This document shows, piece by piece, positions 7,563 to 63,328 of a stretch of 64,000 nt of DNA (positions are counted from its first letter, which is position 1; each line of letters opens with the position of its first letter). The position numbers and the translations under genes were made by a program. The DNA is taken from positions 147,806 to 211,805 of the forward strand of contig CAYUCS010000001.1 of assembly GCA_964443495.1 (NCBI GenBank), given 5' to 3'. The stretch comes from an uncultured Gammaproteobacteria bacterium. GTDB lineage: Bacteria; Patescibacteriota; Patescibacteriia; Patescibacteriales; GWE2-39-37. The notes under the pieces were generated by a model. The model saw nothing but the letters and a program-made list of their open reading frames with translations, had not been told where the DNA came from and did no database searches.

Positions 7563-8246
7563 ATGAACTTAGAGCAAGCCATCAAGAACATCGACCGTTC
7601 AGTCAGGAAGCGAAAGCCTGAATGTTTCAATGTCTCTTGGGTCAGGCATAAGTTAGCTAAGTCGTATGCATATATAGAAAAGCACGTAACTACTGAGACA
7701 GGAGAAATCGATTGGGATGAAGTGGTTAGAAGGCTCGAGTATGAGCATCAGAAAATGTGGCTCAAGGGCGTTAAGCGCAAGAAGAAAGTTGAAACTTATG
7801 AGGATATGGATGAGGTCGAGGCAATCTTGAGCAGATATCGGGAGCGTCTTTACACTTTCATGGTACAGACCGACAAAGAGGATAAGAAGATTTGCGATGT
7901 CATAAGCATCCGCCTGGTCCGCACTGCTCAGAAGGGCAATATGCTTGCGCAGGAAAAGGCGATGGGTTTGATCAGACAGTTGGTGGAGCAATGGATGGAA
8001 GACAGGGGTCTCGGTCATTGGCGAGGATATGGCGAATTCATTGATACTAATATCGAGCGATGTATCCGCCGTTATCGATACTCTGGCTCATTTACGACCT
8101 ATCTATATCGCACGCTCCAATATGCTGGCCGTGGCATCAGGCCGCTTGAAGTTTTCTCATTAGATAGCTATTCTCAAATTACAGGGAGACGCAGGTCTGA
8201 GAATGTGGTGCAGAATGAGGAAACCAATGAGATTTATTTATATTAG
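7563..8246 (+). CDS. Hypothetical protein, possibly a sigma-70 region-2-like (phage-type) factor
   Basis: 'CIRRYRYSGSFTTYLYRTLQYAGR' resembles sigma region 2.2-2.4 (FsTYa..wIr). Weak; no region 4 recognised. Confidence 0.35.
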   Translation: MNLEQAIKNIDRSVRKRKPECFNVSWVRHKLAKSYAYIEKHVTTETGEIDWDEVVRRLEYEHQKMWLKGVKRKKKVETYEDMDEVEAILSRYRERLYTFMVQTDKEDKKICDVISIRLVRTAQKGNMLAQEKAMGLIRQLVEQWMEDRGLGHWRGYGEFIDTNIERCIRRYRYSGSFTTYLYRTLQYAGRGIRPLEVFSLDSYSQITGRRRSENVVQNEETNEIYLY

Positions 8247-8249
8247 ACT

Positions 8250-8810
8250 ATGAAATCTAATTCATATCAAAAAGAAGCGCTGGAAATACTAAGGGATATT
8301 TTCGGCGAGCAGATGGTAAAAAATGAGTGGGATTCGGTTACGTATGACGGTCACACCCACAATCACAAGGCAGTATATGCACCTCGCCATGATATCGCTG
8401 TTGGTCCTTTCAATTCGTATGCCGATTTGGATATCGGTAATGACAGGACTAGTGTGATGAAGTCGCATTTACTGACTAAAAAATTATACGATGGAACCTT
8501 GAGTAACAGAGGAAAATTAGATGAAGTCTGGAATAATTTTCCTAGGTGCTATTTGGCTATCGAAATCGAATGTAATGGGTCGTCAAAGCACATGCTCGGC
8601 AGCATAATCAATGCAAGCGTATCAGGCTCGATAGGAATTGTCATTGTTCCTGAGCATAGGAAAGAAAAGGCAAGAAGGATATGCAATTACATCAATAGGC
8701 TTCGAGGCATGGAACGTTTGGAGTTATATACATATGACAACCTGATCGTCTTCGGCCAAGCTGAGTTCCTTGATTTCATCAAGAGCTTTAGGCATGCCAC
8801 CAAAGCTTAG
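8250..8810 (+). CDS. Hypothetical protein with a possible PD-(D/E)xK nuclease core
   Basis: 'PRHDIAVGP' ... 'YLAIEIECNGSSKH' fits the D...ExE..K layout. The assignment is inference from motif spacing only. Confidence 0.4.
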   Translation: MKSNSYQKEALEILRDIFGEQMVKNEWDSVTYDGHTHNHKAVYAPRHDIAVGPFNSYADLDIGNDRTSVMKSHLLTKKLYDGTLSNRGKLDEVWNNFPRCYLAIEIECNGSSKHMLGSIINASVSGSIGIVIVPEHRKEKARRICNYINRLRGMERLELYTYDNLIVFGQAEFLDFIKSFRHATKA

Positions 8811-8988
8811 TCTTGTCCAGTTGAGACAAATAGCTCTCCGTGTCTCATTTGTCTCATTTTAAAACTAGAGAAGACTTATGTTAGATAAAACAGACCCCGA
8901 CCCACGTACTTTTTTGAGACACAGAAAAAGACATCAAAAAACCCTTTAAAACCTCGCTAAGCTGGGCACTTAACCCAGCTAGCCCGCC

Positions 8989-9027
8989 AAATAAATTAGA
9001 CCCCTTTGGGGGGGTCTAATTTATTTT
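8989..9027. terminator. 16-bp AT-flanked hairpin (AAATAAATTAGACCCC / GGGGTCTAATTTATTT)
   Basis: Perfect stem read from the sequence, with an A-run before and a T-run after (bidirectional form). Same style as the hairpins that follow the tRNA genes. Confidence 0.6.
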
Positions 9028-9173
9028 GTGTGAGAAAGTGGGAAGAAGAATTTTCGCTTGATAATAAGTGGTAATCAATCGGAAATAATAACATAGAATG
9101 AGTTGGGTTTAGTGGCAGATTTTAGAAATGATTAAAGGGGCTTCCGCCCCGTTCGAATCCCTCTCTCTCCGCA
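9028..9173 (+). repeat. F-element copy 1: ~145-nt element ending in a hairpin plus a tRNA-Ser T-loop/acceptor 3' strand (GTTCGAATCCCTCTCTCTCCGCA)
   Basis: Alignable with 60398-60539. Hairpin GGGGC-TTCC-GCCCC (9137-9150) abuts the tRNA-like 3' end. There is no 5' acceptor strand and the T-stem cannot form. Confidence 0.5.
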
Positions 9174-9250
9174 CCGCCCTTCATTAGACTTAAGTTTGTG
9201 CATTTAGTATCATTAAGACATAAGCGGTCAAGCGCAGTTAAAATAAAAAA

Positions 9251-10177
9251 ATGACGATCAAAAACAAGATCTTTTTGGGTTTCGTTCCGGTGATTATTTT
9301 AATGTTCGTTTTGGGAGTCTACGGCTTTTTTGCCAATAGGCATGTTGCCAGCATGTTTGTTGAGCATTCTTTTAATGAAATGAAATATGGCAACGCCATC
9401 ACCTCGTTGCGCATTTCTATCATGGAGATGGTGCGTTCGACCGAAGAGTATGATGCCGGCTGGGTCAGCAGGGAGGAGATGGTCAGGGAGGCGGAGGAAC
9501 AAAAAGAGAATATAAATTCAAATTTCGATATTCTTTCGGCCAGCCAGGCACTGAGCGCCGATGTCGCCAAGCAGAGGACTTTAGTGACTGAGTTGTACGC
9601 GCTGAACGGCAAGTTGGTTGAAAAACATGAAGAAGGTGCTGATGTCAGAGAAGGAATAATGCAGGAATTCGACAACAAGACAGCTGAGCTCAAGCTCGGA
9701 TTCGATGCCATGTCAGGCTTGAATGACGAGGTAATGAATTCAAGAATGGAAAACATCCGGTCAGATTCGAATGCTTTTACCGTCATTAGCATGCTCTTGA
9801 TTTTGTTCTGTTTGCTGGCGGCATCGCTGTCGGGTTATCTTATCTCAGCCGCCATTTCCAAACCCATAAAATCATTGATGGAAGCTGCTTTGAATGTCGC
9901 TCGCGGGAATTATGAAACGGAGTTGGCCATCGACTCAGAGGATGAGGTCGGCGGCTTGGCGCGGGCTTTTAAAACGATGGCCGAGAGTATTAAAGGGTCT
10001 CGGGCACAGGTCGAAGCAAAGGCGAAAGAGTTGGAAAAAAAGAACAAAGAGCTTGAAGACACCTTGGATGATTTTTATACCTTAAGGATCGGGATGACTA
10101 GAGATATGGAAAAAGGCGTTCTGGAGGCGGAAAACAGGAAGATAAAGTCGAAAATAAACAAGCTGCGCCGCACATAG
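9251..10177 (+). CDS. Membrane protein with HAMP domain and C-terminal coiled coil (no recognisable output domain)
   Basis: Two TM segments flank a ~170-aa extracytoplasmic region. HAMP 'SKPIKSLMEAALNVARGNYETELAIDSEDEVGGLARAFKTMAESI', then a Lys/Glu-rich coil. Confidence 0.7.
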   Translation: MTIKNKIFLGFVPVIILMFVLGVYGFFANRHVASMFVEHSFNEMKYGNAITSLRISIMEMVRSTEEYDAGWVSREEMVREAEEQKENINSNFDILSASQALSADVAKQRTLVTELYALNGKLVEKHEEGADVREGIMQEFDNKTAELKLGFDAMSGLNDEVMNSRMENIRSDSNAFTVISMLLILFCLLAASLSGYLISAAISKPIKSLMEAALNVARGNYETELAIDSEDEVGGLARAFKTMAESIKGSRAQVEAKAKELEKKNKELEDTLDDFYTLRIGMTRDMEKGVLEAENRKIKSKINKLRRT

Positions 10178-12169: not shown

Positions 12170-13174
12170 ATGGCTAAACATAACCACGCCTCGGGCTTTT
12201 TTTCTGTTTCTCTGGCGATTTTAGGCAACGCCTCCATCACGGCGATAAAATTCATAGGGTTCTTGATATCAGGTTCAAGCGCCCTGTTTTCGGAGTCTAT
12301 CCATAGCTTTGCCGATACGATGAACCAGTCTTTGCTGATGGTCGGCATCAAGCGTTCGATCAAGAAGGCGGACTCCGAGCACACTTATGGCTACGGCCAA
12401 GAGCGCTTCTTGTGGGCGCTGATTTCCGCTTGCGGCATCTTCTTCCTCGGTGCCGGCGTTACGGCAGTCAACGGCATCAATGCCATGAAGCATCCGGAAT
12501 CTATAGTCATCGGGCCGGTGGTTTTTGCCATATTGGCGGCTTCATTCATCGTCGAATCGGTGACTTTCATTGTCGCGATCCGCGAACTCAGGGCCTCTGA
12601 CCCTGAAGCTAGTCTGCCGGAACTGCTCAGGGATGGGGATCCGACTACGATCGCCGTCATCTATGAAGACGGTGTCGCTTTGATCGGCGTACTGGTGGCT
12701 TTGGCATCGGTCACTTTGGTCAAGCTGACAGGCCAGCATTTTTGGGACGGCCTAGGCTCGATCGTCATCGGCTTGATGCTTGCTGCCGTCGCCATTTTGC
12801 TGATCAGGAAAAACAAGGAATATTTGAATCGCAAGGCTATCCCCGAGAATGTCAAAGAGCAGATTATGGAGATACTCGAGTCGGAGCCGGCAGTCGAGCG
12901 GGTCATCAATTTCAAATCATCGATCCTTGACGTCGGTGCCTACCACGTCCTGTGCGAAATCGAGTTCAATGGCGCACACCTTTTGAAGAGGCTCCCGAAT
13001 AATCTCAAGGATGAGTTCGAAGAGATCGATGGTGACTTCGAGGAATTCAAGAAATTCGCCGTTCGCTATATCGACAGGGTGCCGCGCATCGTCGGCACTT
13101 ACATCAACGAAATCGAGGAGAGGATCCAAAGAGAGATTCCGAGCATTATCCATATCGACATTGAAGTCAACTGA
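12170..13174 (+). CDS. Cation diffusion facilitator (CDF) family metal efflux transporter
   Basis: ORF 12098..13174 trimmed to ATG 12170 (MAKHNHAS). 'SESIHSFADTMNQ' TM2 motif, 6 TM segments and a cytoplasmic C-domain. Confidence 0.85.
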   Translation: MAKHNHASGFFSVSLAILGNASITAIKFIGFLISGSSALFSESIHSFADTMNQSLLMVGIKRSIKKADSEHTYGYGQERFLWALISACGIFFLGAGVTAVNGINAMKHPESIVIGPVVFAILAASFIVESVTFIVAIRELRASDPEASLPELLRDGDPTTIAVIYEDGVALIGVLVALASVTLVKLTGQHFWDGLGSIVIGLMLAAVAILLIRKNKEYLNRKAIPENVKEQIMEILESEPAVERVINFKSSILDVGAYHVLCEIEFNGAHLLKRLPNNLKDEFEEIDGDFEEFKKFAVRYIDRVPRIVGTYINEIEERIQREIPSIIHIDIEVN

Positions 13175-13182
13175 CCCGATCG

Positions 13183-13211
13183 CGGCCGCTGTTCAGGCGG
13201 CCGTTTTTTTT
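13183..13211 (+). terminator. Intrinsic terminator after the CDF gene
   Basis: CGGCCGC-TGTTCAG-GCGGCCG followed by T8. Confidence 0.7.
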
Positions 13212-13246
13212 ATATAATAAAGAGGCGTAAACATAAAAAAGAACAT

Positions 13247-15010
13247 ATGCTCAAACATCATTTTCGATTCACTTGGAAGGTGGGCGGGGAGGCCGGTTTC
13301 GGCATCAAGCTGGCCGGACTTTCTTTCGCCAAAGCCTGCATGCGTGCCGGCTACCACACCTTTGACTATACCGAGTACCCGTCCTTGATCCGCGGCGGGC
13401 ACAACACTTATCAGATCACTATCGGCACCGAACCGGTATTTAGCGCCAGTCGCGACGTCGAAGTATTGGTAGCCCTGAACAAGACGACGATAGATAACCA
13501 TTTCAATGAACTTACGGAAGGTTCGGCCATAATCTATGACGGTAGTGAAATCAAGCTGAGTCCGGCCAAATTCAAGGCCAAGAAAATCAGCCTGATTTCC
13601 GTGCCCTTGAAAGAGATCAGTGCGGCTACGGGCGGGGAGATCATGCGCAACGTGGTGGCCATCGGCGCCACGGCGGGCCTGCTCAATCTGCCGTTGTCGA
13701 TCCTGAACGAGATCATCAAGGAGCAATTCGCCGCCAAGCCCCAGGTTATCGATCAGAACATCGAGGCCTTGAAGCAGGGGCAGGAATACGTCAAGAAGCA
13801 TTACGGCAAGATTGATTTCAAGATCAAGCTCGAGCCGATCGCCCGCGAGAAACGCTTGCTGATTGCCGGCAATGAGGCTATGGGCATGGGCGCCTTGGCC
13901 GCGGGGGTTAATTTCTTCGCAGCTTACCCGATGACGCCATCAACCTCCTTGATGCTTTTCTTGGCGGCGCAGGCGGTCAAGACCGGCCTGGTGGTCAAGC
14001 ACGCCGAGGACGAAATCTCGGTCATAAACATGGCTTTGGGCGCGGCCCATGTCGGCGCGCGGGCCATGTGCGGCACTTCGGGCGGCGGTTATGCCTTGAT
14101 GGGCGAGGGCTTAGGCTTGTGCGCGGTAAGTGAGACCCCGTTAGTCATGGTCGATGTGCAACGGCCAGGGCCGGCCACCGGAATGCCGACCTGGACCGAC
14201 CAGGGCGATTTGCAATTCGTCTTGCACAGCGCCCAAGGCGAGTTTCCGCGCATCGTGGCAGCGCCGGGCGATATCGACGAGTGCTTCTCGATTACGGCCG
14301 AGGCGTTCAACTGGGCAGAAAAATACCAGCTGCCAGTTATCCTGCTTTCTGATAAATTTTTGGGCGAAGGCACCGGCACGGTAAACCCGTTCGATACGAG
14401 CAAGGTCAAGATCGAGCGCGGCAAACTGTTGGCCGAAGGGAAAATACCGAAGAATTACAAACGCTATAAAGTGACCGAGGACGGCATCTCGCCACGCACC
14501 TTGCCGGGCATGAAGGACGGTATCTATTGGGCTGATAGCTATGAGCATACCGAGCAGGGCTTTTCGAGCGAGACCATCGAGGATAGGATAGCTCAAGTGG
14601 ACAAGCGGGCCCGCAAGCTGGTGACCGCCGCTAAGGATCTGGACGGCGCCAATTGGTACGGTTCACCAAAAGCTAGGATCACTCTGGTGGCCTGGGGTTC
14701 GACCAAGGGTCCGATCCTGGATGCCATCAAGCTGTTGCCAGCCGACAAGCAGAAACAGATTGCCTTGCTGCACCTGAATATCATCTGGCCGTTCCCGAAC
14801 AAGAAAGTGACTGACGCCATCAAGCCGGTCACCGGCCTCTTGGCCAAGCCGAAGAAGGTGGTTCTGATCGAGAACAATTCCCAGGCCCAGCTCGGGCAGA
14901 TCATCCGCCAAGAAACCGGCATCGAGATCAAAGACAAGATACTCAAATACGACGGCCGGCCGTTCTTTCCCGAGGAATTGGCGGAGAAGATTAATAAATT
15001 AATGAAGTAA
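13247..15010 (+). CDS. korA: 2-oxoacid:ferredoxin oxidoreductase, fused gamma-alpha subunit
   Basis: 587 aa with typical POR/KOR gamma then alpha domain order, followed by the TPP-binding beta subunit 4 nt downstream. Confidence 0.9.
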   Translation: MLKHHFRFTWKVGGEAGFGIKLAGLSFAKACMRAGYHTFDYTEYPSLIRGGHNTYQITIGTEPVFSASRDVEVLVALNKTTIDNHFNELTEGSAIIYDGSEIKLSPAKFKAKKISLISVPLKEISAATGGEIMRNVVAIGATAGLLNLPLSILNEIIKEQFAAKPQVIDQNIEALKQGQEYVKKHYGKIDFKIKLEPIAREKRLLIAGNEAMGMGALAAGVNFFAAYPMTPSTSLMLFLAAQAVKTGLVVKHAEDEISVINMALGAAHVGARAMCGTSGGGYALMGEGLGLCAVSETPLVMVDVQRPGPATGMPTWTDQGDLQFVLHSAQGEFPRIVAAPGDIDECFSITAEAFNWAEKYQLPVILLSDKFLGEGTGTVNPFDTSKVKIERGKLLAEGKIPKNYKRYKVTEDGISPRTLPGMKDGIYWADSYEHTEQGFSSETIEDRIAQVDKRARKLVTAAKDLDGANWYGSPKARITLVAWGSTKGPILDAIKLLPADKQKQIALLHLNIIWPFPNKKVTDAIKPVTGLLAKPKKVVLIENNSQAQLGQIIRQETGIEIKDKILKYDGRPFFPEELAEKINKLMK

Positions 15011-16636: not shown

Positions 16637-16696
16637 AAATAGGTTATATTACCGTAATACCGCAAAACACAAGGCTTAATCACCTTGTGTTTTGAT

Positions 16697-16783
16697 GGAG
16701 GGATGTCTGAGCGGTTTAAGGAGACAGTCTTGAAAACTGTTGGCCCTTTACGGGGCCCGTGGGTTCGAATCCCACTCCCTCCG
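16697..16783 (+). tRNA. tRNA-Ser (anticodon UGA)
   Basis: Cloverleaf built by hand: acceptor GGAGGGA/TCCCTCC, anticodon stem ACAGT/ACTGT with loop CTTGAAA, long variable arm, T-arm GTGGG-TTCGAAT-CCCAC, discriminator G. CCA is not encoded (CAC follows). Confidence 0.9.
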
Positions 16784-16792
16784 CACAAAAAC

Positions 16793-16830
16793 AATAGGGC
16801 GCCTGTGAATGCAGGCGCCCTATTGTTTTT
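16793..16830 (+). terminator. 17-bp hairpin plus T-run after tRNA-Ser(UGA)
   Basis: AATAGGGCGCCTG...CAGGCGCCCTATT followed by GTTTTT. Confidence 0.75.
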
Positions 16831-16841
16831 GCATTTGGAAA

Positions 16842-17003
16842 GGAGTGGGATTCGAACGGGCAGCAGTGAGCAAGCCCCTGCTCAGCAGAGCAGGGGCGCA
16901 GTCGAACGCCGCAGAAGTGCCAGGCGGCACTTCTGCGCTGCCCGGGACAACGAGTGTGTCCGCGACGGCGGACACGCGAGGCGCAAATCCCACTCCCTCC
17001 GCA
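16842..17003 (+). ncRNA. Candidate structured RNA, copy A (unassigned family): terminal 9-bp helix, GGGCAGC/GCTGCCC helix enclosing two hairpins, a third hairpin, and a 3' end identical to the tRNA-Ser(UGA) 3' end
   Basis: Full-length alignment with 60596-60755, with compensatory changes in all variable helices. Bracketed by hairpins. Strand is inferred from the T-runs of the flanking terminators. Confidence 0.55.
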
Positions 17004-17047
17004 CCTAAAATAATACCCCTACAAGTTTGTGGGGGTATTATTTTAGG
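17004..17047. terminator. Long AT-flanked hairpin (CCTAAAATAATACCCC...GGGGTATTATTTTAGG)
   Basis: 16-bp stem read from the sequence; symmetric A/T flanks. Confidence 0.6.
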
Positions 17048-24724: not shown

Positions 24725-24796
24725 GCACTCGTCGTTCAACGGATAGGACGCAAGCTTGCGGAGCTTGTAATCTAGGTTCGATTCCTAGCGAGTGCA
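24725..24796 (+). tRNA. tRNA-Arg (anticodon GCG)
   Basis: Acceptor GCACTCG/CGAGTGC, D-stem GTTC/GGAC, anticodon stem CAAGC/GCTTG with loop TTGCGGA, T-arm CTAGG-TTCGATT-CCTAG. 72 nt; CCA is not encoded. Confidence 0.9.
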
Positions 24797-24797
24797 C

Positions 24798-24837
24798 AAA
24801 TAAAATTGCCGTACCGAATGGTGCGGCTATTTTATTT
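24798..24837. terminator. AT-flanked hairpin after tRNA-Arg
   Basis: AAATAAAAT-GCCGTACC-GAAT-GGTGCGGC-TATTTTATTT (one G:T pair). Confidence 0.5.
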
Positions 24838-24840
24838 GCG

Positions 24841-24909
24841 TATTTGCTGGGCAGAAGAGAATTTAGTTGCGGCGTGGGGTTTAACCCCTTCGATTCCTAG
24901 CGAGTGCAC
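24841..24909 (+). repeat. F-type element copy 3: TTTAG block, hairpin GGGGT-TTA-ACCCC, then a 21-nt exact copy of the tRNA-Arg 3' end (TTCGATTCCTAGCGAGTGCAC)
   Basis: 24889-24909 is identical to 24777-24797. The hairpin abuts the T-loop sequence exactly as in F copies 1 and 2. Confidence 0.45.
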
Positions 24910-27066: not shown

Positions 27067-27072
27067 TTAAAT

Positions 27073-27224
27073 TAAGAGGCGGGATTATATTCTTTCAGTC
27101 AGGATAAAAAAGACGAAGTCTTTTTGTATGGTCGGGAATTCATGTTCCTTGACCAAAATTCTGGGGCTTTTCTTCGAAAAACTTACGAATTTTTATTCCT
27201 TCAAGAATATAATCCCGCCTCTTA
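27073..27224. repeat. 22-bp perfect inverted repeat (TAAGAGGCGGGATTATATTCTT / AAGAATATAATCCCGCCTCTTA) flanking 108 bp between convergent recG and mpg
   Basis: Arms at 27073-27094 and 27203-27224, read directly. Inner AAAAAGAC-GAA-GTCTTTTT hairpin at about 27107-27125. Confidence 0.6.
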
Positions 27225-27226
27225 GT

Positions 27227-27793
27227 CTAGTATTTTGAAACGAAGGCGTTGTTTTTGATATAGAACCGCCATGGCTTGTCTTTGTATTCTCCGGCGTAGT
27301 CTATGCCGATGCGCGGCTTGGCTACGATGCTTTCGGGCTTCAAAATAAAATTTTTGGCACGTCCTTCGATCCAGAGGCCGTGCTTTTTAGTGTGGAGCGG
27401 CAGACCATTGAAAGACCTGTCGATAGCCAGTGCTTTGGTCAGCCTGGCCGGGCCATCGGTTCTGGTTTTGTTTGGCGTTAATGGTTCAAGCGCGCGGATC
27501 AGCACAGCCGCCGGGTAATCCTTGGGGCCGGTTACGGCATTGAGCATGTGGTGCATGCCATAGGTAAAATAGACATAAGCAATGCCGCCTGCTTCGAACA
27601 TCGGCTGATTGCGCGGCGTGCGGCCGCGGCTGGCGTGCGAGCCCTTGTCGAGCGGCCCGTCGTAGGCTTCGGTCTCGACAATCAAGTATTTGGCAATGCG
27701 GCCATCAGGAAAGCGGCGCACTAAAAAACAGCCCAGCAGGTCTTGGGCTATTTTTAAAGTTGGTTGGAGATAGAAGGATTTAGGTAACAGCAT
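27227..27793 (-). CDS. DNA-3-methyladenine glycosylase (Mpg/AAG family)
   Basis: 'FYLQPTLKIAQDLLGCFLVRR...IVETEAY' is typical of the MPG family. Confidence 0.85.
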   Translation of the reverse strand: MLLPKSFYLQPTLKIAQDLLGCFLVRRFPDGRIAKYLIVETEAYDGPLDKGSHASRGRTPRNQPMFEAGGIAYVYFTYGMHHMLNAVTGPKDYPAAVLIRALEPLTPNKTRTDGPARLTKALAIDRSFNGLPLHTKKHGLWIEGRAKNFILKPESIVAKPRIGIDYAGEYKDKPWRFYIKNNAFVSKY

Positions 27794-36258: not shown

Positions 36259-36366
36259 TTAATTTACAATTTTCAATTTTCAAACAATGACAAAATGATT
36301 CAATTTTTCAATTAGTAAATTGGAATATTGAAAAATTGTTTAGAAATTAGAAATTAGAAATTTCAC
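36259..36366. repeat. AT-rich palindromic/tandem spacer R1: CAATTTTTCAAT (36301-12) / ATTGAAAAATTG (36327-38), and TAGAAAT x3 (36341-61)
   Basis: Read directly. Shares AATTTTCAATT and AAACAAT...TTTTTCAA blocks with 57568-57649. Confidence 0.5.
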
Positions 36367-57567: not shown

Positions 57568-57570
<3 letters not shown>

Positions 57571-57649
57571 TTTTCAATTATCAATTTAAAATTTTTAAAC
57601 AATTTTTCAACATCCCGATTTTCAAGATTATAAAATTGAAAATTATTTT
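57568..57649. repeat. AT-rich palindromic spacer R2: TAATTTTCAATT (57568-79) / AATTGAAAATTA (57634-45)
   Basis: Read directly. Shares sequence blocks with R1 (36259-36366). Confidence 0.45.
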
Positions 57650-57959: not shown

Positions 57960-59417
57960 ATGAAATTGAACGAACTGACAATAGCGGAAGCGCAAAAGAA
58001 ACTTGAGGCCGGCGAGGTGACTTCGGTCGAATTGACCGAGGCTTGCTTGGCCCGCATCGACGAGGTCGATGGCCAGGTCAAGGCCTGCTTGATCGTCACC
58101 GTCGAAGAGGCTTTGGCCGCTGCCCGCGCCGCTGACGAACGTCGCGCTTCGGGCGAGACCGGGCCTTTGCTCGGCATCCCGTATCTGTGCAAGGACAACA
58201 TCATGACCGCCGGCATCAGGACAACCGCCGCTTCGAAGATGATGGAGAACTATGTCGCCCCTTACGACGCGACAATCGTCGCGAGACTGAAGGAGGCCGG
58301 TGCCGTCCTTTTAGGTAAGACCAACCTGGATGAGTTCGCTCACGGTGCTTCGACGGAGAACAGCGCTTTCGGCACTACCCATAATCCATACGACTTGGAG
58401 CGCGTGCCGGGCGGTTCTTCGGGCGGTTCAGCTGCGGCCGTGGCGGCTGATATGTGCCTTTTCGCGCTCGGTACCGACACGGGCGGCTCGATCCGTTGCC
58501 CGGCTAGCTTTTGCGGCATCGTGGGACTCAAGCCGACCTATGGCCGCGGCTCGCGCTTCGGCTTGGTCGCCATGACCAGCTCGACCGACGTGCCTGGCCC
58601 GATGACTAAGACGGCCGAAGATGCGGCTATCGTCGAGCAGGTGATTGCCGGACTTGACCGCTATGACGCTACGACCGTCGATCGCCCCGTACCGGATTAT
58701 CAAGAAGAATTGAATGCGCCGCTTAAAGGCAAAAAAATCGGCCTACCCAAGGAATATTTTACAGACGGCATCGAGCCGGAAGCCGCCGCCGCCGTCAAGG
58801 AAGCTATCGAAGAGTACAAGAAGCTCGGTGCTGAATTCGTCGAAGTCAGCCTGCCGCACACCAAATACGGCGTGCCGGTCTATTATATAATCACTCCGTC
58901 CGAGGTCAGCTCGAACCTGGCTCGCCATGACGGCATCCGCTACGGTTATTCGACCTACGCAGACGAGAACGGCCTGGACAAGGTCTATGCCAATAGCCGC
59001 GGCCAAGGATTCGGTCAAGAGTCCAAGCGCCGCATCATGCTTGGCACCTATGCTTTGTCGGCCGGCTATTTCGACGCCTACTATCTCCAGGCGCAGAAGG
59101 TGAGGACCAAGATCAAGGAAGACTTCGACAAGGCGTTGGCCGAGGTCGATCTGCTCCTGACCCCGACCTCGCCTCACCCGGCTTTCAAGATCGGGGAACA
59201 GGCGGCTGATCCGTTGAAGATGTATCTTGAAGATATCTTCGTCACCGGCGCTTCGCTGGCCGGGTTACCGGCTTTGGCCATCCCTTGCGGCACCGCCCAA
59301 GGCCTGCCCGTCGGCTTGCAGCTCATCGGCCGCGCCTTCGAAGAGTCAACCCTCTTGTCGGCTGCGCACCAGTATCAGCAGGCTACCGCTTGGCATAAGA
59401 ACAAACCTAATCTTTAA
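57960..59417 (+). CDS. gatA: Asp/Glu-tRNA(Asn/Gln) amidotransferase subunit A
   Basis: Amidase signature 'GGSSGGSAAAVAAD...GTDTGGSIR'. Confidence 0.92.
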   Translation: MKLNELTIAEAQKKLEAGEVTSVELTEACLARIDEVDGQVKACLIVTVEEALAAARAADERRASGETGPLLGIPYLCKDNIMTAGIRTTAASKMMENYVAPYDATIVARLKEAGAVLLGKTNLDEFAHGASTENSAFGTTHNPYDLERVPGGSSGGSAAAVAADMCLFALGTDTGGSIRCPASFCGIVGLKPTYGRGSRFGLVAMTSSTDVPGPMTKTAEDAAIVEQVIAGLDRYDATTVDRPVPDYQEELNAPLKGKKIGLPKEYFTDGIEPEAAAAVKEAIEEYKKLGAEFVEVSLPHTKYGVPVYYIITPSEVSSNLARHDGIRYGYSTYADENGLDKVYANSRGQGFGQESKRRIMLGTYALSAGYFDAYYLQAQKVRTKIKEDFDKALAEVDLLLTPTSPHPAFKIGEQAADPLKMYLEDIFVTGASLAGLPALAIPCGTAQGLPVGLQLIGRAFEESTLLSAAHQYQQATAWHKNKPNL

Positions 59418-59426
59418 AATAAGAGT

Positions 59427-60221
59427 ATGAATCAAGGAGAAAAGCCGCTCGGCCAGGCAACGGCCAAAATGACGATCGTCGTCTTGGCTCTTGTCTTGGT
59501 CACCGCCCTCGGACTCTGGATCGCCCAGAAGCAGATTCCGCCCGTCACGCCCGCCGGTCAGGTGGCAACCTCGACGTCGGAACAAGACCAGCTTGACCAG
59601 GTGCGGGAGGCTGAGCAGCAGAAAACTGGCAGCTTCGACGAATCGAAGCTCGGCAAAGTCTTGCCCGTGCGTCCGGCTGATGACAAGGACCACGTCTGGG
59701 GCAGCTTGAGCGCCAAGGTTGTCATGATAATCTATGATGATTTCGAGTGCCCGTTCTGTGCTGATTATTACGATACCGTCGAAAAGGCCAAGGCCGAGTT
59801 CGGCGACCAACTGGCTGTCGTCTTCCGCCATAACCCGCTTTTGAATATCCATGCCTATGCTTTGAAAGCGGCCGTCGCCAGCGAGTGCGCGGCCGAGCAG
59901 GGCAAGTTCTGGGAGATGTACCGCAAGCTGTTCGCCGACAACAAGGCTGGCCGGATGTATGACAAGCAGTTCAAGGACGATGCCAAGGCGATCGGCCTGG
60001 ATCAGGCTAAATTCAACCAGTGCTTGGACACTGACAAGTACAAGGACGAGGTGATAAACGAGATGATCGAAGCTAAGACCTTCAACGTCAACGGTACTCC
60101 GACGACCTTCATAAACGGGGAAATCGTAGTCGGGGCTAATCCTTATGAAGACCTGACCGCCAGCGATGGCCGGAAAATCGAAGGGTTGAAAAACATCATC
60201 TCTAGACAATTGCAAAAATAA
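59427..60221 (+). CDS. DsbA/thioredoxin-fold thiol:disulfide oxidoreductase, membrane-anchored
   Basis: TM segment 'MTIVVLALVLVTALGLWI' and CxxC 'FECPFCA'. Confidence 0.8.
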   Translation: MNQGEKPLGQATAKMTIVVLALVLVTALGLWIAQKQIPPVTPAGQVATSTSEQDQLDQVREAEQQKTGSFDESKLGKVLPVRPADDKDHVWGSLSAKVVMIIYDDFECPFCADYYDTVEKAKAEFGDQLAVVFRHNPLLNIHAYALKAAVASECAAEQGKFWEMYRKLFADNKAGRMYDKQFKDDAKAIGLDQAKFNQCLDTDKYKDEVINEMIEAKTFNVNGTPTTFINGEIVVGANPYEDLTASDGRKIEGLKNIISRQLQK

Positions 60222-60233
60222 TTAGTATTATAG

Positions 60234-60260
60234 AAAACGCCTGCTTCTGGCGGGCGTTTT
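60234..60260 (+). terminator. Intrinsic terminator after the dsbA-like gene
   Basis: AAAACGCC...GGCGTTTT. Confidence 0.55.
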
Positions 60261-60266
60261 CATTTA

Positions 60267-60356
60267 GGAGAGATCGCATAGTGGTCGAGTGCGCTCGCTT
60301 GGAAAGCGGGTAAGCTGTCAAAGGCTTCGAGGGTTCAAATCCCTCTCTCTCCGCCA
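60267..60356 (+). tRNA. tRNA-Ser (anticodon GGA), CCA encoded
   Basis: Acceptor GGAGAGA/TCTCTCC, anticodon stem CTCGC/GCGGG with loop TTGGAAA, long variable arm, T-arm GAGGG-TTCAAAT-CCCTC, G73, CCA. Confidence 0.92.
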
Positions 60357-60391
60357 ATAAAAATACCCACCATTCGGTGGGTATTTTTATT
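60357..60391. terminator. AT-flanked hairpin after tRNA-Ser(GGA)
   Basis: ATAAAAATACCCACC-ATTC-GGTGGGTATTTTTAT. Confidence 0.6.
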
Positions 60392-60397
60392 GGTCGG

Positions 60398-60539
60398 ACG
60401 TGAGAAGTATGAAAACCCTTGTTTGATAATGGGTGAATAAAAGCCAGAAGTATTAATAAGAATAATCTCGACATTTAGCGGCAGGTTTTTGAAATGATCG
60501 ATAGGGCTTCCGCCCTGTTCAAATCCCTCTCTCTCCGCT
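60398..60539 (+). repeat. F-element copy 2 (homologous to 9028-9173), ending AGGGC-TTCC-GCCCT hairpin plus GTTCAAATCCCTCTCTCTCCGC
   Basis: Aligned by eye with copy 1 over ~145 nt. The last 18 nt are identical to the tRNA-Ser(GGA) 3' end. Confidence 0.5.
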
Positions 60540-60540
60540 C

Positions 60541-60583
60541 ATAAAACAATACCCCCACAATCCTGTGGGGGGTATTGTTTTAT
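60541..60583. terminator. AT-flanked hairpin between F copy 2 and structured element B
   Basis: ATAAAACAATACCCCCACA-ATCC-TGTGGGGGGTATTGTTTTAT (one bulge). Confidence 0.55.
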
Positions 60584-60595
60584 GTATCGAGAAAA

Positions 60596-60755
60596 AGAGA
60601 GGGATTTGAACGGGCAGCAGTGAGCAAGACCCTTCGCACCAGCGAAGGGTCGCAGTCGAACGCCGCAGAAGTGATGGGTATCACTTCTGCGCTGCCCAGG
60701 GCAACGAACCCGTCCGCGGCGGCGGACGGGTGAGGCGGGAATCCCTCTCTCCGCA
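60596..60755 (+). ncRNA. Candidate structured RNA, copy B (same unassigned family as 16842-17003)
   Basis: Same conserved single-stranded blocks and helices as copy A, with compensatory changes. Terminal helix AGAGAGGGA/TCCCTCTCT. The 5' 16 nt are the exact reverse complement of tRNA-Ser(GGA) 60333-60348. Confidence 0.55.
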
Positions 60756-60766
60756 CTAATAAAATA

Positions 60767-60797
60767 GAGGGTGAAATCAATCACCCTCGTTTTTTTT
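60767..60797 (+). terminator. Intrinsic terminator after element B
   Basis: GAGGGTGA-AATCAA-TCACCCTC followed by G + T8. Confidence 0.75.
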
Positions 60798-60810
60798 CTG
60801 TCAGAACTCC

Positions 60811-61353
60811 TTATCGGTTTTTGAGGATACCGGAATATCCTTGTTTTTCCAGCCACTCGCGCTGGCTCAGGCGTCCGGTACCGGCATCGTAGATGACGAG
60901 CGCTAGCCAGAGCAGGAGCAGCAGGATGGTGGCGGTCTTTTCGTTCGAGTTGCCGTAAAGGTAGGTAATCGGCAGTAGGATGGCCAAGAGGTAGAGAAAC
61001 AGCGGCACGATCGCCAAATTGTGGTAAACATCCACTGCTTGGCCGAGCTGCCAGTTCGAGCTCGCTAACACACCCGCTTCGATGATGACGCCGATGGCCA
61101 GGCAGACGAACGCCAGGCACAGGTGGTACAGGTCTGAAGTCAGCCAAGATGGCAGGATCTGTACGCGTTTCAGGACGGTCACTGCGATCAGGATGACCAC
61201 GATCAGTCCGATGTCGCCGTAGCGGGCGGCATGGGAGACGTTGTAGGAGAAACCCTCAAGGGTTTCGCGGCCGGCATCGACGACGAAGCCGGTCAGGAGA
61301 TAGAGCAGGAGCGCTAGCCCCCAGATGGGCAATTGGTAAAGAGCATTATGCAT
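60811..61353 (-). CDS. Hypothetical polytopic membrane protein
   Basis: ORF trimmed to the ATG preceded by AGGAGG (MHNALYQLPIWG). About 6 TM segments; no recognised family. Confidence 0.55.
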   Translation of the reverse strand: MHNALYQLPIWGLALLLYLLTGFVVDAGRETLEGFSYNVSHAARYGDIGLIVVILIAVTVLKRVQILPSWLTSDLYHLCLAFVCLAIGVIIEAGVLASSNWQLGQAVDVYHNLAIVPLFLYLLAILLPITYLYGNSNEKTATILLLLLWLALVIYDAGTGRLSQREWLEKQGYSGILKNR

Positions 61354-61473
61354 GGCAAAGCCTCCTTTCGGGCATTTTTTGATGTTTTTGCTAAGCAAAG
61401 ATTCTTCACTATAGTATAAAAAGGCGTAATTGTCAATTAATAATCCCCAGTGTTTATCGGCCTCCCGCTTGCA

Positions 61474-63244: not shown

Positions 63245-63328
63245 AAATTTTAAATTTCAAATTTTAAATTTCAAATGGCGCTTGTTGCAACTTTTTTGAA
63301 ATTTAAAATTTAAAATTTAAAATTCAAA
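63245..63328. repeat. AT-rich palindromic/tandem spacer R3: AATTTTAAATTTCA x2 (63246-73), complementary TGAAATTTAAAATT (63297-310), ATTTAAA x3
   Basis: Read directly. The centre GGCGCTTGTTGC is the only GC-containing part. Confidence 0.45.

Follow-up and report, generated by a model that had tools for sequence, protein, structure and literature searches.

To our knowledge, transfer RNA (tRNA) genes are classical landing pads for genomic islands, and the elements known at these sites carry an integrase of their own. A repeat that runs from the T-loop to the tRNA's 3' end is the textbook footprint of a tyrosine integrase. The ssrA islands of Dehalococcoides have reportedly been built by tandem accretion at the transfer-messenger RNA (tmRNA) gene. 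Cis-mobilizable elements (CIMEs) are deletion derivatives of conjugative elements; these derivatives are bounded by attachment (att) repeats of the attL/attR type, lack recombination genes and can lie in tandem with other elements at one att site. The attC site of integrons is a single imperfect hairpin of 57-141 nucleotides (nt) with R'' (RYYYAAC) and R' (GTTRRRY) cores, found in arrays near IntI, and attP(+) of CTX-phi is used by XerCD. The tycheposons of Prochlorococcus form tandem elements separated by partial tRNAs in a streamlined genome (10.1101/2020.12.28.424599), and a casposon at the 3' end of a tRNA-Pro gene produced a 15-bp duplication that lies mostly downstream and overlaps the tRNA by 5 bp (PMC5137440). 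Here we analyzed a window of 64,000 nt (positions 147,806 to 211,805 of contig CAYUCS010000001.1, assembly GCA_964443495.1), which comes from an uncultured groundwater bacterium of the Candidate Phyla Radiation (CPR)/Patescibacteria, placed by its GatA protein in Candidatus Falkowbacteria. Behind its tRNA genes we found small gene-less units that end in copies of the tRNA 3' end. One of them, element B, appears from sequence comparison to be a previously undescribed family of strongly folded mobile elements of about 220 bp that reside behind different tRNA genes; another type, element F, accompanies it at one of the loci.

Repeats in the window were located by a repeat search, tRNAs by ARAGORN and Rfam 15, and terminators and promoters by sequence scans; features lie on the plus strand unless stated otherwise. 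The array is anchored by tRNA-Ser(GGA) (60267-60356; ARAGORN; Rfam RF00005, 55.9 bits, above the gathering threshold). The tRNA is followed by a hairpin whose GC stem stands between an A-tract and a T-tract (60357-60393); this hairpin looks like a bidirectional terminator, forms the first part of the F2 unit and has counterparts before F1, the second F copy of the window, and before the F copy of a relative (L002). F2 (60394-60540) consists of a body (60394-60516), whose 3' motif TTTTNGAAATGAT..GGGCTTCCGCCC is conserved in the alignment with F1 and the L002 copy, and of a sense repeat (60517-60540), a direct copy of the tRNA-Ser(GGA) end from T-loop to 3' end at a spacing of 184 bp from the tRNA copy. 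The last 22 nt of F2, GTTCAAATCCCTCTCTCTCCGC, agree with the tRNA from T-loop to discriminator at 22 of 22 positions, and this repeat is the site behind which B2 inserted. The B2 unit begins with another hairpin (60541-60583; terminator scan match at 60552-60571 on both strands), whose outer arms AAAACAATA and TATTGTTTT are common, in the alignment, to the hairpin preceding B1. B2 itself (60597-60756) is made of an antisense 5' arm (GAGAGGGATTTGAAC, 60597-60611), a core (60612-60739) in which helix P2 surrounds the hairpins HP1 and HP2 and is followed by HP3, and a sense 3' arm (60740-60756). The sense arm is a direct repeat of the tRNA-type end (AATCCCTCTC--TCCGCAC) and pairs with the antisense arm, closing the B fold; B2 ends in AATCCCTCTCTCCGCAC, the tRNA end without one TC. 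Behind B2 lies a native bidirectional terminator (60767-60797, with a hairpin at 60767-60788 and then T8; terminator scan), which also serves a convergent membrane-protein gene (60811-61398, minus strand).

The 17-mer AATCCCTCTCTCTCCGC was present six times in the window at up to three mismatches, compared with a mean of 0.34 in shuffled sequences, and none of 100 shuffles reached six. The antisense arm was significant in shuffle tests for B1-B4 (p<0.0005), and the B2 arm, if extended by A60596, is exactly reverse-complementary to 16 nt of the tRNA-type end upstream (GTTCAAATCCCTCTCT, 16/16). In the repeat search, the 3' end of F2 was complementary to the 5' arm of B2 over 33 nt at 79%. The direct repeats measure 22 nt in F2, 19 nt in B1, 17 nt with a 2-nt gap in B2, 16 nt in the copy B3 described below and 20 nt in a further module at a tRNA-Arg gene. 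An earlier note, made from the letters of this DNA, had given the order as tRNA, hairpin, F2, hairpin, B2 and terminator, and this proved correct in every detail (sequence, ARAGORN and Rfam). Its statements that the two modules each finish with a tRNA 3'-end copy, that the end of F2 is complementary to the 5' arm of B2 and that the modules carry no gene were confirmed as well: the repeats are not a matter of chance, the modules contain no open reading frame (ORF) of note, and the ORFs drawn over B arise artefactually from the GC-rich stems of the element.

B1 stands immediately after tRNA-Ser(TGA) (16697-16784, with the CAC trailer to 16786; ARAGORN and Rfam) and was recognized in the repeat search as a 174-nt copy of B2 at 16839-17012 with 79% identity. 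The B1 unit of 218 bp (16787-17004) comprises a hairpin (16787-16830), the antisense arm (16842-16857), the core (16858-16985) and a sense repeat (16986-17004). The bounds of the unit are marked by this repeat, 19 nt of the tRNA end. The 3' end of B1, AATCCCACTCCCTCCGCAC, is the exact end of tRNA-Ser(TGA), and its 5' start, GGAGTGGGATTCGAAC, is the exact reverse complement of the T-loop, the T-stem and part of the acceptor of the same tRNA. The 5' start of B2, AGAGAGGGATTTGAAC, complements an end of the Ser(GGA) type, the TTCAAAT T-loop included. Measured by the spacing of the repeat copies, the B unit has 218 bp at both loci of the window and 215 bp in a metagenome contig (L146).

To compare these loci with those of relatives, the orthologous tRNA-Ser(TGA) loci were recovered through the downstream sigma-factor gene. 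In L007, the sigma factor of which is 94% identical, tRNA-Ser(TGA) is followed by the terminator and the sigma gene, and B is absent. The junction in L007 reads ...CCCACTCCCTCCGCAC and then CTAACAAAAGCC...TTAGGTTTTTATGAAAGAAAAG; what stands there after ...CCGCAC (CTAA..TTAGGTTTTTATGAAAG) matches the sequence downstream of B1, and its counterpart in the window (CTAAAATAATACCCC...TTAGGTATTTATGAAAGAAAAG) follows B1, not the tRNA. Likewise, L004 and L005 (sigma factor 83% identical) pass from the tRNA to the terminator and the sigma gene without B. At the orthologous tRNA-Ser(GGA) locus of L002 (GCA_013336275.1, Candidatus Falkowbacteria), the GatA protein of which is 93% identical to that encoded at 57960-59417 in the window, F is present and B is absent, and a RibD_C gene and a short-chain dehydrogenase (adh_short) gene follow that are not in the window. 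Because the B1 site is empty in relatives whose sequence matches the window sequence behind B1, the sequence comparison indicates that element B is a real insertion. Since B is absent at the same loci in close relatives, it is accessory. The presence of F and the absence of B in L002 therefore suggest that F is the older resident and that B2 was a later arrival behind the tRNA-type end of F. The comparison of orthologous loci proposed in the earlier note has thus revealed a presence/absence polymorphism of B at both tRNA-Ser loci.

Three further homologues, on two metagenome contigs, were found by translating B as a pseudo-ORF and then searching protein collections. The family is known from five copies, of which one is truncated and one decayed. 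B3, in L146 (JGI 3300029959), stands behind tRNA-Gln(TTG) with a hairpin between them; its core is conserved, and over 16 nt its 3' arm repeats the tRNA-Gln end exactly. B4, a more diverged copy in L147 (Logan SRR22387746), is located behind tRNA-Gln(CTG), also with a hairpin between. On the same contig, B5 follows a pair of Mrr and AIPR genes, the sequence ...CCTGAGCCA and a hairpin; it has no tRNA directly upstream and is cut by the contig end. The ...CCTGAGCCA before B5 is a decayed tRNA-Gln-like end. The gene pair between B4 and B5 (4341-7039 of L147) codes for a nuclease of the Mrr_cat/NA-iREase1 type and for an AIPR (abortive-infection) protein, and it has the look of a defence cassette with a B unit on either side. 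The earlier note had framed the site as specific to serine tRNAs, and this is wrong, since B is found at Ser(TGA), Ser(GGA), Gln(TTG) and Gln(CTG); a module of another type lies at Arg(GCG). A core of about 128 nt, 81-83% identical between copies, is shared by four or five loci in different organisms.

The arms of B differ in their origin. In B3, the 5' arm GGAATGGG has two mismatches to its own Gln-type 3' arm and is one base away from the arm of B1; it follows that the repeat stems from the target, or att, site, whereas the 5' arm belongs to the element. Nevertheless, the T-loop part of the 5' arm, for which B itself offers nothing to pair with, agrees with the local tRNA in B1-B4 (ATTCGAAC, ATTTGAAC, ATTCGAAC and ACTCGAAC, tracking the T-loop forms TTCGAAT, TTCAAAT, TTCGAAT and TTCGAGT), and the arm of B5 has the form ACTCGAAC, as in B4. 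This tracking may reflect a palindrome-templated correction or a selection that keeps the arm able to pair with the tRNA copy upstream. The sense repeat starts at T-loop position A58 in B1-B3. We also noticed two heptamers that resemble the T-loop complement. One lies at the end of the antisense arm (TTGAACG, 60607-60613 in B2) and one in the core (TCGAACG, 60654-60660), within the junction GCAGTCGAACGCC; the pair is present likewise in B1 and B3-B5, and such a repeated heptamer could be a protein-binding motif.

Searches with exact patterns added no further copies. The B-core pattern had no match in the genome contigs, nor had the F pattern; the B pattern had eight matches in metagenome contigs, all of them chance occurrences in coding sequence, and the B patterns gave only single chance matches in viral contigs. 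These negatives are weak, as the JGI contig that bears B3 fits the pattern and yet was not returned, and the source genome is not among the genome contigs. In the viral contigs, the pattern of the Ser(GGA) end occurred at more than 120 loci and that of the Ser(TGA) end at 7, and the site is therefore a common prophage boundary. Neither blastn nor nhmmer detected a B or F body at those viral loci, and the B1 unit had no blastn match in phage and plasmid collections.

The fold of B is strong and conserved. Single copies fold with minimum free energies of -94 to -101 kcal/mol and z-scores of -6.7 to -9. In the alignment of three copies, 56 pairs are formed with 97.6% of the cells paired, and 15 of the 56 show compensatory (double) changes; these values were reached by none of 500 shuffles, and slid partners gave at most 2. 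The 5' arm and the 3' repeat pair as the closing helix P1; then come P2, which encloses HP1 and HP2, and HP3. B1-B3 do not differ in the junctions (CAGUGAGCAAG, GCAGUCGAACGCC, the shared GCAACGA and GAGGCG), and B4 shows only slight variation there. By these measures B is a conserved structured nucleic-acid element. Wobble pairs (U.G) occur on the plus strand in HP3 of B1, P1 of B2, HP1 of B5 and the invariant helix P2a, and on the minus strand in one pair only, which would slightly favour the strand of the tRNA; the fold could be adopted by RNA or by single-stranded DNA. When the B unit was folded as a permuted circle, the repeat, its own hairpin and the antisense arm were predicted to form a long hairpin of 36 bp beside the three-hairpin core. 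In a read-through transcript, the antisense arm was predicted to pair with the 3' half of the tRNA itself. Rfam 15 identified only tRNAs in the window, L146 and L147, with nothing credible at E<=10 in 60000-61000 and nothing at E<=1 in 8100-9300, and neither ARAGORN nor Rfam called a tRNA or tmRNA in F or B.

Several other identities were considered and rejected. For tmRNA, permuted tmRNA, tRNA-Sec, allo-tRNA, signal recognition particle RNA, 6S RNA and Y RNA, ARAGORN and Rfam gave no support for F or B and the architecture is wrong. A retron or another non-coding RNA of a reverse transcriptase lacks the reverse-transcriptase gene, and tRNA-primed reverse transcription does not account for the repeat, which copies the CAC trailer of the gene and not a mature CCA end. 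If B were a minus-strand gene ending at its own hairpin, its promoter would be in flanking host DNA, and the wobble pairs slightly favour the plus strand.

Element F differs from B in its structure. The F1 unit (8990-9174) is a paralogue of F2 and is composed of a hairpin and a body with the sense repeat GTTCGAATCCCTCTCTCTCCGCAC at 9151-9174 (F1 proper, 9028-9174); it is closer than F2 to the L002 copy, the preceding hairpin included. The F copies keep the 3' motif as well as a hairpin of 5 bp in which one position is compensated, and their folds are weak, with z-scores of -0.65 to -2.5 (-0.65 for F2). Double changes were seen in 4 of 34 pairs and the covariation term was about 0, so that F does not behave as a conserved fold. 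The internally conserved structure that the earlier note had attributed to both modules is thus borne out for B and not for F. A third type of module, of 112 bp (24798-24909), lies behind tRNA-Arg(GCG) (24725-24797). It contains an imperfect hairpin flanked by A and T, a body of about 50 nt with a small GGGG-TTTAA-CCCC hairpin, and TCGATTCCTAGCGAGTGCAC, an exact 20-nt repeat of the tRNA 3' end at 24890-24909. Ser(GGA), Ser(TGA) and Arg(GCG) all carry modules, and therefore all three tRNA genes of the window do. An antisense arm like that of B was sought in F and in the Arg module and rejected, as the shuffle test was not significant (p = 0.04-0.5, against <0.0005 for B1-B4).

F1 adjoins the right edge of a segment of low GC content (window position 1 to about 9000), in which the GC content is 36-45% compared with about 52% elsewhere. 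Its genes encode type III restriction-modification (Mod and Res), a ParB-methylase, an HTH_Tnp_1_2 protein and several ORFs without a family, and the segment is probably an integrated defence island, with its left end beyond the window. Before the F1 hairpin there is only a tRNA-like end fragment (...GCCCGCCA). Here, directly before the hairpin, 8962-8990 contains a T-arm-like hairpin, GCTGGG-CACTTAA-CCCAGC, followed by TAGCCCGCCA. This could be a decayed 3' fragment of another tRNA and an old att repeat; no tRNA 5' half was found for it, and it had no Rfam match at E<=1.

At the tRNA-Ser(GGA) locus, two metagenome contigs of close relatives whose GatA is 98% and 91% identical end inside the tRNA gene (L016 3386-3422 and L148 2687-2729), as is expected if downstream repeats or strain variation break the assembly. 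A methyltransferase gene lies between dsbA and tRNA-Ser(GGA) in L016 (2660-3379), and the RibD_C and adh_short genes of L002 occupy 12686-14109 after F. The gene content thus differs between close relatives, and the locus is a hotspot of gene gain and loss. Promoter-like sites stand before both tRNA-Ser genes (TAGACA-17-TATTAT in 60232-60266 and TTGCAA-17-TATATT in 16651-16696). In each of these two stretches, an element with an A-tract, a hairpin and a T-tract is situated between the promoter-like site and the 5' end of the tRNA; it may be the terminator of the upstream gene inside the tRNA leader. Elsewhere in the window, a 27-nt inverted repeat, 93% complementary with a 108-nt spacer (TAAATTAAGAGGCGGGATTATATTCTT..., 27068-27229), was found between recG and a methylpurine glycosylase gene and may be another small element. 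AT-rich intergenic repeats (AATTTTCAATT/AAATTTAAAATTT) are present at 57569-57593, 63246-63324 and 36261-36327, and those at 63246-63324 form a 30-nt inverted repeat (97%).

Among the three readings that the earlier note had placed side by side (a decayed integration hotspot, cis-mobilisable mini-elements and a co-transcribed operon of a tRNA and small RNAs), the mini-elements fit best. Its suggestion of tandem accretion by insertion also holds, as the B1 site is empty in two relatives, F occurs without B in L002 and B copies lie behind tRNA-Gln genes. Directly observed are the insertion polymorphism, the repeats, several tRNA targets, the conserved fold of B and units without genes; a bounding direct repeat of the tRNA 3' end and a presence/absence polymorphism with an intact empty site, both present here, are what is expected of an integrase-mediated island at a tRNA gene. 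We lean towards the view, for which we see a little better than an even chance, that the array arose by serial insertion of small, gene-less, non-autonomous integrative elements at the tRNA 3' end and that these were mobilised in trans. Each unit would bring a terminator-like hairpin that, placed directly behind the intact tRNA end, probably keeps the transcription of the tRNA terminated. At its end, each has a direct repeat that begins at T-loop position ~54-58 and extends to the discriminator and 0-3 nt beyond it. Such a terminal repeat recreates the landing site, and therefore the next element can insert behind it. In the present array, F would have come first and B2 later, giving the order tRNA, F2, B2. 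The fold of B would be closed by the 5' arm, which is antisense to the T-loop, the T-stem and part of the acceptor, pairing with the 3' repeat. In an excised, circularly permuted form, the long hairpin would imitate the double-stranded end of a tRNA gene. The folded strand of B might then be the cis-acting site of a recombinase supplied in trans, a mode of action suggested by the analogy with attC and CTX-phi, and the enzyme would most likely be a tyrosine integrase of the T-loop class.

Several points weigh against serial insertion of elements mobilised in trans. No integrase (Phage_integrase), recombinase, Cas1, HUH or reverse-transcriptase gene was found beside any copy or among the checked ORFs of the window and the island, including the neighbours of the tRNA-Ser modules, where the earlier note had advised looking for an integrase; because no such gene was seen, the helper enzyme is hypothetical. 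A classical integrase exchange leaves unexplained why both repeats are of the local type at three tRNAs. It would need a matching attP for each B lineage or a true target-site duplication. Moreover, it leaves unexplained why the 5' arm tracks the local T-loop in a part that has no partner inside the element. The present-day mobility of B is inferred from presence/absence and multiple targets, and no excised form of B was observed. Only five B copies are known, from seemingly two or three organisms. Since F and the Arg module have no significant antisense arm, the idea of a long hairpin applies to B only. A bolder view, which we hold tentatively and think unlikely, is that B is the cis-acting heart of an undescribed tRNA-anchored cassette system, an integron-like platform of CPR bacteria. 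A single-stranded DNA or RNA of about 220 nt would take on a fold in which its own antisense arm, together with the arm of tRNA type, mimics or recognises a tRNA-gene 3' end. Either base pairing or site mimicry, as in attC and CTX-phi attP, would direct the insertion, or it would proceed in a guide-like manner. The landing site would be renewed at each insertion, arrays would grow behind tRNA genes, and they may carry defence cargo, such as the Mrr/AIPR genes between B4 and B5.

The units may instead be tRNA-linked small RNA genes, with B and perhaps F transcribed together with or just after the tRNA, as a mobile small island with an RNA gene. The closing helix of B could imitate the minihelix of acceptor and T-stem and so serve as a substrate for RNase P, RNase Z or the CCA-adding enzyme, or the antisense arm could pair with the 3' half of the tRNA and modulate its maturation. 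Covarying stems with invariant single-stranded junctions are the classical signature of a functional structured RNA, every copy is co-oriented with its tRNA and ends at terminators, the wobble pairs favour the tRNA strand, and the pairing predicted for a read-through transcript points in the same direction. However, the promoter scan found no sigma-70-type promoter before F or B, whereas both tRNA-Ser genes have one, and a strong terminator-like hairpin separates the tRNA from B in every copy. B is also absent at the same loci in close relatives, has no Rfam match, and has stems that are perfect helices of 10-11 bp with hardly any bulges, which is unusual for an old RNA family. We regard small RNA genes as an unlikely explanation. 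A serious alternative, somewhat less probable still in our judgement, is a cut-and-fill insertion with target duplication, in which a Cas1/casposase-like enzyme or another transposase would nick the T-loop and the tRNA end with a stagger of 16-22 bp, in place of a site-specific exchange between identical att sites. This would account for repeats that are always of the local tRNA type, even in B3, where the 5' arm borne by the element does not match, and for the constant start of the repeat at A58 in B1-B3. The repeat of B2 retains the ...CCGCAC tail that is found at the end of F in L002, which suggests that it originated from the target. Yet the unit has no terminal inverted repeats, no casposase, Cas1 or transposase gene was seen among the neighbours and the checked window ORFs, and a repeat from the T-loop to the 3' end is generally known as the footprint of tyrosine integrases. 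Casposases do duplicate 15 bp at the 3' end of tRNA-Pro and recognise a segment of the T-loop (PMC5137440), but the casposon repeat lies just after the tRNA, whereas the present repeats are variable (16-22 bp) and lie inside it.

The units could also be inert scars, the leftovers of full-size islands after internal deletion, without function or mobility. The position of F1 at the edge of the low-GC restriction-modification island, the Mrr/AIPR genes flanked by B4 and B5, the weak structure of F and the gene turnover at tRNA-Ser(GGA) (RibD_C and adh_short in L002, the methyltransferase in L016) are in keeping with this. Independent deletions, however, would not yield a unit of 215-218 bp at three tRNAs, the core of B stays 97.6% paired through its 15 compensatory changes with invariant junctions, and no integrase fragment was found. 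The possibility raised in the earlier note that these are simple remnants of integrase-bearing islands is thus not upheld, as no integrase was seen and the core of B is conserved with compensatory changes across loci and organisms. Another explanation is a local replication artefact, in which template switching at the terminator palindrome duplicated the tRNA end with no mobile element involved. The succession of a direct copy, a hairpin, an inverted copy and, further on, a direct copy resembles a duplication/inverted-triplication, and a correction templated by the palindrome could account for a 5' arm that tracks the local T-loop. As a full explanation this is contradicted by the ~128-nt core, which is 81-83% identical between copies at four or five loci of different organisms and is not derived from local sequence; as a secondary process, it may keep the 5' arm matched to the tRNA. 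Because of the constant unit size, the covariation and the one core at four or five loci, we consider scars very unlikely and a pure artefact extremely unlikely.

Element B is without genes, yet it preserves its fold precisely, together with an arm that complements the target; it appears to move between tRNAs and organisms, and it brackets defence genes. Mobile elements are thought to be scarce in CPR genomes. If B were the recombination site of a trans-acting system, it would show gene-cassette exchange in these tiny, streamlined genomes. A new structured motif would then join the few nucleic acids that are recombined in folded form, and it would represent a compact targeting module that looks programmable. 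In practice, such repeats break metagenome assemblies at tRNA genes and create spurious ORFs and partial-tRNA calls.

Compared with known systems, B and F share features with several of them. MITEs, the miniature inverted-repeat transposable elements, are also small, non-coding and non-autonomous, with inverted arms that can fold. However, their terminal repeats are identical in all copies and their target duplications are short, whereas the arms of B follow the local tRNA; the ends of the B unit (the hairpin and ...GAGGCGGG) are not inverted repeats of each other, and its repeat of 16-22 nt is site-specific. Like the present units, the casposon targets a tRNA 3' end, recognises a T-loop segment and makes a long target duplication (PMC5137440). 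In contrast, it has terminal inverted repeats, a casposase and PolB, none of which was found here; the present repeat of 16-22 nt lies inside the tRNA, terminal inverted repeats are lacking and there was no Cas1 among the checked ORFs. The inverted arms of attC and of CTX-phi attP(+) are generally known to fold into a mock double-stranded site, with the structure conserved over the sequence and the enzyme provided in trans, and this is similar to what we suggest for B. The cassette-like arrangement of B4, Mrr/AIPR and B5 recalls an attC array as well. B differs in that it is 160 nt long and branched, with three hairpins, and in that its target is a tRNA end and not attI or dif; its TTCGAAC/GTTCGAA motifs, read by eye, do not fit the R''/R' cores, and no IntI was seen. 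With CIMEs, the B and F units have in common att-type repeats on both sides and the lack of recombination or transfer genes, whereas CIMEs, as is generally known, have no conserved structured core. Tycheposons resemble the array in stacking behind one tRNA with partial tRNA 3' copies between the elements, in their streamlined hosts, in carrying defence or adaptive cargo and in a content that varies between strains (10.1101/2020.12.28.424599). Tycheposons and ssrA islands, however, are kilobases long and carry tyrosine or serine recombinases, in contrast to the gene-less units of 112-218 bp described here, for which no integrase was seen; B, on the other hand, has a conserved fold and an arm antisense to its target. 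By this analogy, we suggest that the B array would be a miniature version of the tandem accretion known at tRNA genes, with a conserved folded core and a target-complementary arm that have not been described there.

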